The notes beneath the pieces were generated by a model. The model was not told the DNA's origin. It did not search any database and saw nothing but the letters and a program-made list of their open reading frames with translations. This document shows, in pieces, positions 54,823-63,265 of a stretch of DNA of 64,000 bases (position 1 is the stretch's first letter; every line of letters starts with the position of its first letter). Source of the stretch: Gammaproteobacteria bacterium (GTDB lineage Bacteria > Pseudomonadota > Gammaproteobacteria > SZUA-152); the NCBI GenBank assembly GCA_029882975.1, contig JAOUJW010000014.1, forward strand, positions 3,814-67,813, read 5' to 3'. A program made the position numbers and the translations under genes.

Positions 54823-56076
54823 CTAAACGCCAAGAGATTTCTTCTGGCGTTTGCCTGGGGCTCGCACATTGAATACGGGTTCTTTGGGATTACGGATTGC
54901 AAGCTCTAACGCGGCGGCGGCTCGCTGGCGCTGGTTGCCGGTTTTTAAAATGTTGCGGCAATGTGGTTCCGTTATTGGGCTACCGGCTAGATAGCGCGTT
55001 CCTTCGATAAAGTTGGATTTATTCGCTTTCCACCAGAGACTGACCAGTGCAGGCTCCGGCCAAGGCAGGTCTTCATCCGGGTCCATGGCAACGTTTGGGT
55101 CTTTGGGGTCTTCGGTAGGGCCGGTTTCCAGTCCTTCGGGCCAATCGGCTTCAAAATTGTGTTCTTCCAGGTCAACTCCGGTAATCATGCTGAAGGCTTC
55201 GCCGGCAACTCTTGCCACTTCCTGGTCCGCCATTTGTTTGATAATCCAAGGGATGTACATTGGGTCGCCAATAATCCCGGCGCCGATAAGCAGGTGACGC
55301 AAGGTATCCGGGAACTGAGACAGAGACTGTAACCAACTCTGTGCGGTGGGTACATCCAATGCTCTAAGAGACAATTGCAGGGTGCGCTCAAAATGCGGTG
55401 AATCCATCACGAAAAACGGCAATAGATTGTTTATTAAAGATAAGTTACCCAGGAGTATGGATGACCAAGCCGACCAAAACCGGTTAGCCTCGTTGTCGCA
55501 ATGAAAAAATTCTTCCAGGTCGGGTTTTAGGTCCTGGCGCTTTAGTTCGCCAACGGCTCGAATAGCGCGTGCTTGGATCAAAGGATACGGATCATGTATG
55601 GCCTGGTTCAGAATTTCTCCTGGGTCGGCTCGGTGCACAGCGTACGCGGCGATGCTCAAATAGCGGTAAGGGTCCGCGTTTGCGTTTGCCATGCTGTGGA
55701 GCATGGATTCGATTTTTTTAAAAGGAATCCATCCTAGAGCCGACACCAGTGCTTTAAGGTTTTCCAGAGTATGTGCGCCTTTGGAAATGACGTAATCGAT
55801 TTGATCGCCTTTGCCACTTTCAAAAGCCAAAAGCGCTGCCTGAAATACTTCACCGGGTTCCTCTTTTTCCAGAGCCTGAAGGCACATTTCCCAAGCGGGG
55901 CTTCCGGCAATTCGTATACCGCCGAGAGCGGCATCCACCCGCTGGTCCAATTTCGCTAGATCGTCCAGGTTGCAGTGGGGTTCGTTTACGGCAGAAGCGC
56001 GAAGCAGCCACAGAAACGCGCAGTCATCCACATACTGATTAATAATAGCGGGAATGATCGGTGTTTCTTTTTTCAT
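54823..56076 (-). CDS. TIGR02270-like (HEAT-like repeat) protein, last gene of the vgrG island
   Basis: 417 aa. The N-terminus INQYVDDCAFLWLLRASAV...LAKLDQRVDAALGGIRIAG matches my memory of the TIGR02270 family. Confidence 0.45.
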   Translation of the reverse strand: MKKETPIIPAIINQYVDDCAFLWLLRASAVNEPHCNLDDLAKLDQRVDAALGGIRIAGSPAWEMCLQALEKEEPGEVFQAALLAFESGKGDQIDYVISKGAHTLENLKALVSALGWIPFKKIESMLHSMANANADPYRYLSIAAYAVHRADPGEILNQAIHDPYPLIQARAIRAVGELKRQDLKPDLEEFFHCDNEANRFWSAWSSILLGNLSLINNLLPFFVMDSPHFERTLQLSLRALDVPTAQSWLQSLSQFPDTLRHLLIGAGIIGDPMYIPWIIKQMADQEVARVAGEAFSMITGVDLEEHNFEADWPEGLETGPTEDPKDPNVAMDPDEDLPWPEPALVSLWWKANKSNFIEGTRYLAGSPITEPHCRNILKTGNQRQRAAAALELAIRNPKEPVFNVRAPGKRQKKSLGV

Positions 56077-56186
56077 GGTGTCAGCGTTTTACTAAATTGT
56101 CCCCATTATACTTCGATACGGGTTTCTTATAGTAATCTCGGGGGATCGAGAGTTTTTCAATATCTGCTCCATTTGCAGTATCCGCA

Positions 56187-61148: not shown

Positions 61149-61150
61149 GG

Positions 61151-63265
61151 TTAATTTTGAAGTATTTTCTTGCCTTTGATGATGACATCGCCGGAGCCCT
61201 TGATTTGTATTTTCTTACCGTTTAGGGAAACGTCGCCGTTTTTTTCCAGAGTGAGTGTTGCCTTGCCCACTTTTATGGTGAGCTTGTCTTTGATTTCGAT
61301 GACGCCGTTTTTGGCGCCGTTGATACTGAAATCATCACCGGCGCTGAAGGACATTTTTTTACCGGAACTCACGCTAATGTCTTTGCCGGCGTTAACACTC
61401 TTATTGTTGCCAATGTTCTCCGAGCTGTTGGCGCCCACATTTACCGATTTTGCGGCACCAATTTCTTCGGCCTTGGCCGCACCAATGGTTTCGTTCATGG
61501 CAGCGCCCACGGAAATCTGATACGCGCCGCCAATGCTGGTGGCCTTGGCCGCTGCAACATTCTCGGTTTTGGCCGCGCCCACGTTAATGGACTGGTTTGA
61601 ACCCACGCTGGTGGATTGATTAACACCCACACTCACGGTTTGGTTGTTACCTACGGTTTCCGTATCATCCACCGCTACAGTGGTCGTGCGGTTATTGTTG
61701 ATGGTGTCGGTTTGATCGTTCTGTACGGTCGTATCCATGTTGAACTGGGCGTGGATGGTGATCATCTCTTCGCCCTTAGTGTCATTCATGGACATTTCGT
61801 TATAGCCGCCGCCACCGGGGGTGCTGTTGGTTTTCATGCCGGCCACCATGCCTTTGGCGGGCAGTTCGTAGGGCGGTTTGGCTTCGCCGTTGTACAGTCT
61901 GCCGGTGATGATGGGCTGGTCGGGGTCGCCTTCTAAGAAGTCGACGATGACTTCCTGGCCGATGCGCGGGATTTGCACGCCGCCCCAGTTTTTACCGGCG
62001 GTGGGGTGGGAGACGCGAATCCAGCAGGAGCTGTTTTCGTCCGCTTGTCCGGCGCGGTCCCAGTGGAATTGCACTTTGACCCGGCCGTGTTCGTCGGTGT
62101 GTATTTCCTGGCCGGACGGTCCGACGACAATGGCGGTTTGTGGGCCCTGCACGCTGGGCTTGGGTGTAAGACGCGGGCTGCGAAAGGTAACGCTACTGTT
62201 CATGCAGGAGAAGCTGCAGGTGTAGGTTTCCTCTTGGCCACTGCGTGAGCCACCGATAGCGCCACTGCTGTAGACGCCGGCTTTTATGATGTGTTCTGCC
62301 GAGGTGATCAGATACTCGCGGTTTTGATCCATGCGAGGGTGTTGTGCCAGCTCGAACAGGGCGCCCACCATGAGGCCGCGGGCGTTGCCTTCACCGTTGA
62401 GAATTTCATGCTGCGCTTTGAGTTCTTCGATGCGTTTGCGCACGTATTCTTCGCCGTCACCGCGTTCGGGGTATTCGCCGGGATAATCGAAAATTTCAAA
62501 ATCATCCATGGCGTGCTGGCCGGGCATGTCGCGCTTGACTTTGAGGTCCGTGCTGGGTGTTTTGAAATTAAAGTCATTCAGGGCATAAGAACCGGGCTGT
62601 ACTTCCCGGGTCACAAACCAGTCGGAAATGTGGTCACGTTCGCGTTGGCGTACGCTTTCCGGGTAATAGGGAATTTGTTCGTAACCGCTTTGAGTGCTGT
62701 GAGCTTCAATGGAATCGGACAATACCAGGGTGTGTTTGTCCTTATCATGCTTGAAGTAATAATAAATACCTTCCTGCTCCATTAGGCGGCTGACAAAGTT
62801 AAAATCCGTTTCCCGGTACTGGACGCAGTATTCCCAGGTTCGATAGCTGTCACTGAGTTTTTCCTCGAAATCGGAGAAGCCGTGGTCGCGAAAGACTTGC
62901 TTGATGATTTCAGGTGCAGTCTTTTGCTGAAAAATGCGGCAATTGGAGGTGCGGGTTAAAAACCACAGCCAGGGACGCAAGGTCACTTGGTATAAGTGGT
63001 GACTTTCTTGGATACCGGCGTAGCTGAAACGGGTGGCATAGCCGTGAAAAAATCGTTTGGTTCCATCCGGGCGGCTTAAGCGCACCGTCATGGTTTGTCC
63101 CAGGGCATCGGTGAGTTTGATATTGGGGTCGGTGCTGGCCACTTCCAGCTCGAATTCAAAACAACGCCCCATTTGCTCTCGCGCATTCATGGAGTGGAAC
63201 AATAAGATGTTCTCACCCAGCGTGGTGCTTAGCTCAACTTCCCTGGCTTCCTGAAGCAGTATCAT
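61151..63265 (-). CDS. vgrG: Type VI secretion spike protein VgrG (TssI)
   Basis: 704 aa. The N-terminal region is gp27-like (FHSMNAREQMGRCFEFELEV..., RPWLWFLT). The middle is a gp5 OB-like region (IPRIGQEVIVDFLEGDPDQPIITG). The C-terminal beta-helix has V/I-G-x-N octapeptide-like repeats. Confidence 0.9.
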   Translation of the reverse strand: MILLQEAREVELSTTLGENILLFHSMNAREQMGRCFEFELEVASTDPNIKLTDALGQTMTVRLSRPDGTKRFFHGYATRFSYAGIQESHHLYQVTLRPWLWFLTRTSNCRIFQQKTAPEIIKQVFRDHGFSDFEEKLSDSYRTWEYCVQYRETDFNFVSRLMEQEGIYYYFKHDKDKHTLVLSDSIEAHSTQSGYEQIPYYPESVRQRERDHISDWFVTREVQPGSYALNDFNFKTPSTDLKVKRDMPGQHAMDDFEIFDYPGEYPERGDGEEYVRKRIEELKAQHEILNGEGNARGLMVGALFELAQHPRMDQNREYLITSAEHIIKAGVYSSGAIGGSRSGQEETYTCSFSCMNSSVTFRSPRLTPKPSVQGPQTAIVVGPSGQEIHTDEHGRVKVQFHWDRAGQADENSSCWIRVSHPTAGKNWGGVQIPRIGQEVIVDFLEGDPDQPIITGRLYNGEAKPPYELPAKGMVAGMKTNSTPGGGGYNEMSMNDTKGEEMITIHAQFNMDTTVQNDQTDTINNNRTTTVAVDDTETVGNNQTVSVGVNQSTSVGSNQSINVGAAKTENVAAAKATSIGGAYQISVGAAMNETIGAAKAEEIGAAKSVNVGANSSENIGNNKSVNAGKDISVSSGKKMSFSAGDDFSINGAKNGVIEIKDKLTIKVGKATLTLEKNGDVSLNGKKIQIKGSGDVIIKGKKILQN

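Follow-up and report, generated by a model that had tools for sequence, protein, structure and literature searches.

Whether an enzyme gene that lies among the genes of a secretion apparatus belongs to that apparatus is the question raised by a locus in a 64,000-nucleotide (nt) stretch of DNA from a Gammaproteobacteria bacterium (hereafter the window; positions 3,814 to 67,813 of contig JAOUJW010000014.1, assembly GCA_029882975.1). From position 63265 down to 54823, seven minus-strand genes encode, in this order, VgrG (the spike protein of a type VI secretion system, T6SS), a DUF2169 protein, a thiolase-like protein, a PAAR-like (DUF4150) tip protein with a C-terminal tail, a protein of 224 amino acid residues (aa; hereafter ORF224, for open reading frame), a methyltransferase dependent on S-adenosylmethionine (SAM) and a TIGR02270 protein. 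In the original prediction, made from the DNA sequence, this island was taken for a vgrG1b-type auxiliary effector island into which a methyltransferase gene was inserted. Our comparisons placed the methyltransferase in a T6SS-associated clade of the PKMT family that recurs with one subtype of PAAR-like protein and with several unrelated tails. The gene is thus present where it was predicted, but it is not idiosyncratic to this island, as its clade recurs in such clusters across phyla.

Identity of the methyltransferase

For the methyltransferase gene (56187..57668, minus strand), the NCBI and Logan records give a GTG start and 493 aa, whereas the ENA record begins at a later ATG and gives 444 aa. 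The 444-aa form would lose SAM motif I (residues 40–46) and homologs align from residue ~6, so that the 493-aa form is right. The protein possessed a Methyltransf_25/31 domain at residues 34–144 and a MethyTransf_Reg domain (PF10119) at residues 209–290 (48 bits; cut-off 25.5). In comparison with PDB sequences, it matched PKMT1 (5dnk) over residues 34–404 with an E value of 9.5e-46 and PKMT2 (5doo) with an E value of 4.9e-38. The match to the PKMT winged-helix domain PF21782 was weak (E 0.0051; 17.6 bits, below the cut-off of 27.8); this domain is recorded for many close homologs. Moreover, the SAM motif ELGCGxG and an NxxPGW motif were invariant among 35 homologs, and the nearest relatives were only ~50% identical. 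The protein is clearly a homolog of the PKMT-family protein-lysine methyltransferases and is apparently active.

Similar to PKMT1 and PKMT2 of Rickettsia and KmtA of Acinetobacter, the enzyme is a protein of ~490–550 aa that combines a class I SAM domain with PF10119 and carries the shared motifs. PKMT1/2 and KmtA methylate many lysines on exported fibrous surface proteins (PMC8232902; PMC11784438). Different from PKMT1/2 and KmtA, however, the methyltransferase of the island is encoded within a T6SS spike-loading cluster, and no autotransporter gene is near it here. In a neighbor-joining tree of PKMT-like enzymes from genomes and metagenomes, it also belonged to a separate clade.

Association of the methyltransferase with T6SS clusters

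In the first three relatives examined, the methyltransferase gene came immediately behind a PAAR-like gene plus a small variable ORF, in clusters that also contained DUF2169 and thiolase-like genes. In scans of reference genomes and metagenomes, identity dropped sharply from 43–50% in a few loci to 34% or below in the rest. Nearly all loci of 43–50% identity lay in DUF2169-thiolase clusters. A second linked group, of ~32% identity, was found at other cluster positions, namely between the DUF6484 and DUF2169 genes in loci L093 and L097 and after the TIGR02270 gene in L095 and L111. The clusters of DUF2169 (TvpA), DUF6484 (TvpC) and thiolase-like (TvpD) genes, hereafter Tvp clusters, in which a methyltransferase of this kind was found are those of L003–L011, L029, L090, L091, L093, L095, L097, L111 and L119.

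In the neighbor-joining tree of 160 PKMT-like proteins, for which T6SS spike or Tvp genes were scored in the available flanks, the linked methyltransferases formed one clade of two sister groups. Such genes lay alongside 20 of the 28 clade loci and only 4 of the 132 loci outside (Fisher p 2e-15), and at least two such families occurred in the flanks of 16 of the 28 and none of the 132, respectively. Several of the 8 clade loci scored negative are on contigs of only 2–3 kb. In a prospective test, all three further homologs from long contigs were also in such clusters, one of them in a complete T6SS locus of a Longimicrobium metagenome-assembled genome (MAG). More than 20 clusters showed the linkage; they derive from Acidobacteriota, Desulfobacterales, Gemmatimonadota (Longimicrobium), Planctomycetota and the organism of this study. 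The position of the gene varied, either after the immunity gene or between the DUF6484 and DUF2169 genes. In 11 of ~16 clusters it directly abutted the TIGR02270 gene, in either order and often with an overlap.

The methyltransferase was associated with one subtype of PAAR-like protein, PxPL (…CKMPGPPAPFVPxPLPN…ASKGTGGG…), which was found in all 14 aligned methyltransferase-linked clusters. None of the four clusters with the canonical motif contained the methyltransferase, and two PxPL clusters were without it, that of L168 and that of a Caballeronia plasmid (Fisher p 0.003 for this small, non-random sample). Its two sister groups occurred with the same tail families (L003 and L093, L005 and L095, L008 and L029), and the methyltransferase therefore does not track a toxin. 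Given the recurrence of the gene across phyla, gene orders and tails, a functional tie of the methyltransferase to the T6SS is likely.

The linked clusters came almost entirely from MAGs of uncultured lineages. Among plasmids, a search of a plasmid collection found no member of the T6SS-linked clade (best match 30% identity), and the annotated plasmid-borne class II clusters had no such methyltransferase gene. One of the clusters, L009 (JAIORJ010000198.1), was binned with an archaeal MAG named "Methanococcoides sp."; it consists of bacterial DUF2169, thiolase-like, PAAR-like and methyltransferase genes, and its presence in an archaeal bin is most likely due to contamination.

The closest relative found for the island is an unpublished MAG cluster, L168 (GCA_034680565.1, contig JAXOUH010034368.1), whose gene order is ClpV-VgrG-DUF6484-DUF2169-thiolase-PAAR-like-ORF233-TIGR02270. 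Its tip protein was 77.5% identical to that of the island over the full length, tail included. The identities of the other proteins were 60% (DUF2169), 53% (thiolase-like), 50% (ORF233, the homolog of ORF224), 43% (TIGR02270) and 41% (VgrG). L168 has a DUF6484 gene and adjoins ClpV but has no methyltransferase, the reverse of what was found in the island, and its GC content is 71%, compared with ~49% for the island. Since the methyltransferase is not found in L168, it is an optional add-on of these clusters rather than an obligatory part.

Architecture of the island

All seven ORFs were found at the predicted minus-strand coordinates, and the predicted junctions were all reproduced. The gap between vgrG and the DUF2169 gene is 2 nt. 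The DUF2169 and thiolase-like genes overlap by 4 nt, and the junctions on either side of the PAAR-like gene, with the thiolase-like gene and ORF224, are overlaps of 1 nt each. ORF224 and the methyltransferase gene are separated by 3 nt, and the methyltransferase and TIGR02270 genes by 110 nt. Profile searches also bore out the gene identities proposed from motifs for VgrG, DUF2169, DUF4150, the thiolase-like protein, the methyltransferase and TIGR02270.

VgrG (61151..63265; 704 aa) has a gp5-like C-terminal beta-prism and no effector domain. It matched TIGR03361 with 662 bits (cut-off 186; E 5.5e-199) as well as Phage_GPD, Phage_base_V and Gp5_trimer_C. The DUF2169 protein (60138..61148; 336 aa; PF09937, 269.6 bits, E 4.4e-80) was 60% identical to its L168 homolog and 50% identical to those of L003 and L005. 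It is of the TvpA type, a chaperone of the PAAR-like tip, a role taken from the published work (PMC11883445; PMC13373197). The thiolase-like PRK06147 protein (59083..60141; 352 aa), a TvpD-type co-chaperone, matched NF004798 over its full length (residues 2–345; the model has 349 positions) with 204.8 bits and an E value of 2.1e-60, under the equivalog cut-off of 342. It also matched PF00109 (30 bits, cut-off 20.8; E 4.9e-07). Read by eye, this protein has …KGHAAGLCALQKA… at the site of the ketoacyl-synthase nucleophile motif (…ACSSS…), and its L167 homolog has GHAGG at the nucleophile position. The catalytic cysteine has thus seemingly been replaced, in keeping with a chaperone that is not an enzyme. 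The TIGR02270 protein (54823..56076; 417 aa), a HEAT/armadillo-repeat accessory protein, matched its family over the full length (377 bits, cut-off 207; E 1e-112) as well as HEAT_2 (E 1.1e-08). It is the counterpart of PA0101 and of the "armadillo-like" gene of synteny type A, and TIGR02270 is a required accessory in Proteus mirabilis (PMC11883445).

Homology to these families shows VgrG to be the predicted spike, the PAAR-like protein to be its cap, the DUF2169 and thiolase-like proteins to be the predicted chaperones that maintain the competence of the tip and load it, and TIGR02270 to be a conserved accessory protein of such clusters. An identical island was found in at least four independent assemblies. 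Scans for promoters and terminators remained at chance level, an Rfam scan of the window had no match, the island was bracketed by no direct repeats, and no tRNA gene was seen. The island is very probably an intact auxiliary T6SS spike-and-effector module.

Comparison with published vgrG clusters

The cluster of Pseudomonas aeruginosa comprises PA0095 (VgrG1b), PA0096 (DUF6484, TvpC), PA0097 (DUF2169, TvpA), PA0098 (PRK06147, TvpD), PA0099 (DUF4150 with Tox-GHH2, Tse7), an immunity gene and an armadillo-like/TIGR02270 gene (Hachani et al., 2014, PMC4067218; Sachar et al., 2025, PMC11883445; Monlezun et al., 2026, PMC13373197). This PA0095–PA0101 cluster (Tse7/Tsi7) is Tvp class II in one classification (PMC13373197) and DUF2169 synteny type A in another (PMC11883445), and the pef operon of P. 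mirabilis is of the same type. Similar to PA0095–PA0101, the island has the order VgrG, DUF2169, PRK06147, DUF4150 with a toxin, immunity gene and TIGR02270, on one strand and with tight coupling. As in synteny type A, the thiolase-like gene is immediately downstream of a single-domain DUF2169 gene (with the 4-nt overlap), and vgrG, DUF4150 (PIPY) and armadillo-like/TIGR02270 genes co-occur. As in Tvp class II, TvpD (PRK06147) is present, the full-length NF004798 alignment being below the equivalog cut-off. The gene set therefore agrees with the view of the island as a vgrG1b-type auxiliary effector island.

Different from PA0095–PA0101, however, the island has no DUF6484 gene, either between vgrG and the DUF2169 gene or elsewhere in the window. 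In addition, its PAAR-like motif is PAPL instead of P(I/V)P(Y/F), its toxin is an unclassified module of ~95 aa instead of Tox-GHH2, and it has a PKMT-like methyltransferase between the immunity gene and TIGR02270. Moreover, the P. aeruginosa cluster adjoins the H1-T6SS, whereas the island is not beside a T6SS core. DUF6484/TvpC helps to define Tvp class II and forms a pre-complex (PMC13373197). A hidden Markov model built from 11 DUF6484 sequences matched only VgrG in the six-frame translation of the 64-kb window; the C-terminal ~50–60 residues of VgrG (about 645/658–704) are similar to the C-terminal end of DUF6484 proteins. DUF6484 was also not among the gene calls in the 10 kb past the vgrG end of the window or in the ~5 kb past its other end. 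In comparison, DUF6484 was present in all 15 related clusters for which the corresponding region was on the contig. The island thus resembles a class II module, yet one of the defining features is missing locally. The layout of PA0095–PA0101 given in the original prediction left out PA0096, and as the island is without DUF6484, the match to the published cluster is less complete than claimed. In Mesorhizobium, DUF6484 is encoded apart from DUF2169, so that a copy may exist elsewhere in the genome that carries the island.

The island also shares features with the VgrG2-Tap2 (DUF2169)-Tde2 module of Agrobacterium tumefaciens, which is of Tvp class I. In both, VgrG is directly followed by DUF2169 without a TvpC gene, and a PAAR-like effector has its immunity gene downstream. 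Class I modules function without the pre-complex and TvpC (PMC13373197). They are without the thiolase-like TvpD, TIGR02270 and the methyltransferase, however, and the island has all three. Among related clusters, L005, L007 and L170 (a Caballeronia plasmid) contained a divergent HEAT/TIGR02270 gene whose product was 24–27% identical to that of the island. It was not at the cluster end but upstream, between the DUF6484 and DUF2169 genes. Thus, gene order in this cluster type is quite plastic.

As predicted, no Hcp, TssA-M or ClpV gene was found in the window. Pfam searches of 30 further window ORFs of at least 150 aa revealed housekeeping genes only, including UvrD, AcrB/OEP, pilin-like proteins, a Calvin-cycle set, TrmB, ThiG and two-component systems. 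In a phmmer comparison of ten core proteins (TssA, B, C, E, K, L, M, Hcp, ClpV and TagF) with the six-frame translation, the sole match was a shared OmpA domain. The 121-kb parent contig had no core gene in the 10 kb past the vgrG end, which contain RuBisCO, CbbQ and CbbO genes, or in the ~5 kb remaining at the other end, which contain genes for DctP and a TPR protein. The description of the island as an orphan holds for the ~80 kb that surround it.

The tip protein, its tail and ORF224

The N-terminal PAAR-like domain of the 245-aa tip protein (58679..59083, minus strand) matched Tox-PAAR-like PF13665 at residues 21–125 (63.5 bits, E 2.3e-17). The sequence ...CKMPGPPAPFVPAPLPN...ASKGTGGG... 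of this PxPL-subtype protein has P-A-P-L (…PFVPAPLPN…) at the aligned site of the published P(I/V)P(Y/F) motif and thus departs from the canonical PIPY. The canonical PVP(I/V)PYPN was present in L167, L169, Paracoccus and Mesorhizobium. Between related clusters, the PAAR-like N-terminal domains were 53–73% identical (63–74% in another comparison of loci), and after about residue 140 the sequences and the ORFs that follow were unrelated.

The tail (58346..58678, minus strand) consists of a linker and a conserved module of ~95 aa, a putative small toxin with the motif pattern CxxCGxHH ... KLKSSQRRGRH. It is followed by ORF224 (57672..58346, minus strand), its putative cognate immunity protein. 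The stretch of tail and ORF224 has the lowest GC content of the island (0.39–0.42). The tail had no Pfam match at E values up to 1, ORF224 had no family match in profile searches, and the profiles of both matched nothing among PDB sequences below an E value of 0.6. When the AlphaFold2 (AF2) model of ORF224 (pLDDT 77) was compared with the PDB by Foldseek, there was also no match (best E 0.13). The CxxCGxHH motif prompted the idea of a GHH-type/Tox-GHH2 nuclease, which was rejected, as there was no profile match and C-G-x-H-H is unlike the published S(A/G/P)HH signature (PMC4067218). The earlier claim that the toxin domain differs from Tse7 agrees with the lack of any Tox-GHH2 or Pfam match for the tail.

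Homologs of both parts are rare. A word-index search of 5.8e9 proteins found one homolog of the tail, and 8 matches to ORF224 were found among 1.84e9 representative proteins. One of these, P0126, was rejected as a homolog, because it is an adhesin-like protein of 2,500 aa made of perfect 117-aa tandem repeats and its summed match is spurious. The tail was found in four other loci, L167, L168, L169 and P0125 (the last as a protein only, without context), with identities of 60–77%. In L167, L168 and L169 it was followed by a homolog of ORF224 that was 36–50% identical. The pair occurred on two PAAR-like subtypes, and none of these loci had the methyltransferase. In L169, the tail is fused to the other subtype and the ORF224 homolog is next to it. 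L167 (992–1690) is arranged in the same way, but has a single in-frame TAG (1361–1363) between the PAAR-like domain and the tail, and gene callers report two proteins where the window, L168 and L169 have a fused tail. The TAG may reflect a nonsense mutation, an error of sequencing or read-through.

The tails of the 14 methyltransferase-linked clusters belonged to at least six unrelated families, including VRR-NUC tails with TsiV immunity proteins. In these sister clusters, the VRR-NUC-type tail and the TsiV gene that follows it occupy the same two positions as the tail and ORF224. As in polymorphic toxins, a conserved delivery N-terminal domain carries swappable tails, and the downstream gene co-varies with the tail. 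Given the VRR-NUC/TsiV pairs of sister clusters and the occurrence of the tail with an ORF224 homolog on two PAAR-like subtypes, the tail and ORF224 are probably a toxin/immunity pair in a swappable cassette. We infer that this cassette represents a new, very rare and mobile family of polymorphic toxins and immunity proteins.

Possible roles of the methyltransferase and the tail

On balance, the whole is best explained as an auxiliary spike module with a toxin/immunity cassette and an accessory methyltransferase that modifies the spike, an explanation that we hold to be somewhat better than even. VgrG, the PAAR-like tip, TvpA and TvpD would form the spike-loading unit, the tail would be a toxin and ORF224 would be its immunity protein. 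The methyltransferase would be a cytoplasmic accessory enzyme, outside the toxin/immunity pair, that acts before firing and methylates several lysines on the spike, be it on the VgrG beta-prism, the PAAR-like tip and/or the tail. The TIGR02270 protein might be its partner or an alternative substrate. The module would depend on a T6SS core, and probably also on a DUF6484/TvpC protein, from other parts of the genome.

The proposed substrate is suggested by analogy. In Rickettsia, OmpB and other outer-membrane proteins are methylated at multiple lysines, which blocks ubiquitylation (PMC8232902), and in Acinetobacter the trimeric adhesin AtaA carries >130 methyl-lysines made by KmtA (PMC11784438). 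The VgrG/PAAR-like spike is trimeric, beta-helical, exported and lysine-rich, and is therefore comparable to the substrates of the PKMT family. The last 100 residues of VgrG contained 17 lysines and no arginine, and 14% of the tip protein residues were lysines. In high-GC clusters, the VgrG C-prism and the PAAR-like protein kept lysine well above arginine, whereas the methyltransferase and the chaperones were arginine-rich. Lysine enrichment of the spike was rejected as evidence for the substrate, as it was also seen in clusters without the methyltransferase and is thus permissive rather than specific. That the exported spike is the substrate is a tentative proposal, held at somewhat less than even. 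The broader one, that a dedicated lysine methyltransferase is an unrecognized accessory of one Tvp class II-like sublineage and methylates the VgrG/PAAR-like/toxin projectile before firing, is possible but rather doubtful.

Several further observations weigh against an accessory enzyme of the spike. Among the clade members, the long flanks of L088/L089, L017 and L014 hold no T6SS genes. The co-divergence of the methyltransferase with TvpA and TvpD was loose (r ~0.4, compared with 0.89 between TvpA and TvpD), and with a mirror-tree correlation this modest (r 0.4), strict co-inheritance with the chaperones was rejected. Moreover, the absence of the gene from L168, despite the 77.5% identity of the tips, means that the enzyme is dispensable for this tip and toxin. 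The exceptions L088/L089 and L017 and the loose co-divergence, together with the 110-nt gap before TIGR02270 in the island and the 128 of 132 PKMT-like genes sampled outside the clade that had no T6SS neighbors, would fit a linked neighbor with a job unrelated to the T6SS, e.g., the methylation of outer-membrane proteins as by KmtA and PKMT1/2. Such a neighbor is improbable, however, given the linkage in more than 20 clusters across phyla with differing gene orders and toxins, the often tight or overlapping coupling, the grouping of the linked enzymes in one clade and the specificity for one PAAR-like subtype. The main rival is that the methyltransferase is itself a secreted cargo effector, carried on the VgrG/PAAR-like spike (perhaps via TIGR02270), that methylates lysines of the target cell. 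The gene lies in an effector island beside a toxin/immunity pair, and the enzymes of the PKMT family methylate lysines broadly and at multiple sites (PMC8232902). The SET-domain methyltransferase BtSET is listed in one review as delivered by a T6SS, and dispensability, as in L168, is frequent for accessory effectors. No dedicated immunity ORF flanked the methyltransferase in any cluster, which would be understandable if its target were eukaryotic. However, the enzyme carries neither a known T6SS delivery marker nor any domain beyond those of non-T6SS relatives of equal length. It is conserved like the chaperones (45–51% identity), whereas effector tails are swapped freely, and in some clusters its gene sits among assembly genes, between DUF6484 and DUF2169. 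Its lysine/arginine composition also follows the cytoplasmic partners instead of the exported spike parts, which is a weak point. Delivery as cargo is thus unlikely, though less so than a mere neighbor.

The reading of the tail as a toxin and of the island as functional also has points against it. The tail has no recognizable enzymatic fold, with no PDB or Pfam match and an AF2 model of pLDDT 49 that was built from a two-sequence alignment and is unusable. It could instead extend the tip as a short adaptor or linker, with ORF224 as a cargo effector or chaperone. The tail is short (~95 conserved residues) and very basic, with a low-confidence helical prediction and no enzyme-family match, and ORF224 is bigger and is modeled with a confident novel alpha/beta fold. 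However, the 1-nt coupling directly after the PAAR-like module repeats the toxin-then-immunity pattern of the sister VRR-NUC/TsiV clusters. The tail is more conserved (60–77%) than ORF224 (36–50%), as is usual for toxin/immunity pairs, and if ORF224 were an antibacterial effector, it would have no further immunity gene behind it. Such an adaptor is therefore improbable, only marginally less so than the mere neighbor above. The lack of T6SS core genes in ~80 kb around the island, by which its activity stays a prediction, and the local lack of DUF6484/TvpC, present in 15 of 15 related clusters with that region on the contig, would suit a non-functional remnant, cut off from its core and deprived of the TvpC needed for pre-complex assembly. 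But auxiliary vgrG islands distant from the core are common. The seven ORFs are intact and translationally coupled, their catalytic and domain motifs are conserved, and several independent assemblies contain the identical island. DUF6484 may also be encoded away from DUF2169, as in Mesorhizobium, and Tvp class I works without TvpC (PMC13373197). We consider a remnant as improbable as a mere neighbor.

Genomic surroundings

Several features of the flanking DNA were also recorded. Pfam searches identified a ParD antitoxin/ParE toxin pair (51165–51688) ~3 kb downstream of the island. In the non-coding DNA between this pair and a DUF6502 gene are two perfect direct repeats of 103 nt, 123 nt apart, with several copies of the motif CTTGACCCCTAGG (51721–52018), which look like a repetitive extragenic element. 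A plus-strand ORF of 493 aa (53213–54694) converges on the island; it had no significant Pfam family, and an ACGCAA tandem array within it (53722–53769) encodes a (TQ)7 repeat. Overlapping palindromes (AAATGGG…CCCATTT; 53165–53234) lie in the divergent promoter region between this ORF and the DUF6502 gene.

Farther away, transketolase, GAPDH, PGK, pyruvate kinase and class II fructose-bisphosphate aldolase genes (20355–27392) form a Calvin-cycle gene set, form I RuBisCO, CbbQ and CbbO genes are just beyond the right end of the window (>64000), and a DsrE-like gene is also present. The host, with a GC content of ~46%, is apparently an uncultured chemolithoautotroph. A run of minus-strand genes at 8235–12174, one of which has a prepilin N-terminal methylation motif and three of which encode neighbors of 194–711 aa without a Pfam family, may be a minor-pilin/PilY1-like set.

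Implications

The DUF2169/DUF4150 spike-loading modules were dissected only in 2025–2026, and the published gene sets consist of chaperones and scaffolds, with no enzymes (PMC11883445; PMC13373197). The main texts of both papers, the supplements of the Journal of Biological Chemistry paper and a review of T6SS accessory factors from 2026 contain no word beginning with "methyl", and the paper on the PRK06147 adaptor never uses "methyltransferase". Similarly, the T6SS is unmentioned in the KmtA paper (PMC11784438) and in the rickettsial PKMT paper (PMC8232902). Full-text searches of the open-access literature for the T6SS together with methyltransferases found nothing relevant; the only paper to name both "DUF2169" and a methyltransferase in a T6SS cluster, on Re87 of Rhizobium etli, was rejected because its subject is an unrelated truncated O-methyltransferase. 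Within the open-access literature, the association of the methyltransferase with T6SS clusters thus appears to be undocumented, which the near-exclusive origin of the linked clusters from MAGs may explain.

The island is of a known kind, and is a variant by having no local TvpC, a new small toxin/immunity family and a recurrent PKMT-like companion. Among these three features, only the recurrence of the methyltransferase, as seen by comparative genomics alone, is of wider interest. As a natural TvpD-positive and TvpC-negative cluster, the island tests the published class definitions. If the methyltransferase were only a hitchhiker, the island would be an ordinary auxiliary vgrG module. The presence of a methyltransferase in these modules suggests, however, a covalent modification of the projectile or of the loading machinery. 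If so, methylation could protect the projectile from proteolysis, ubiquitin-like tagging or charge-based interactions in the target cell. The enzyme would then be the first one dedicated to modifying a T6SS projectile post-translationally, and the spike would be a third class of PKMT substrates beyond OmpB and AtaA.

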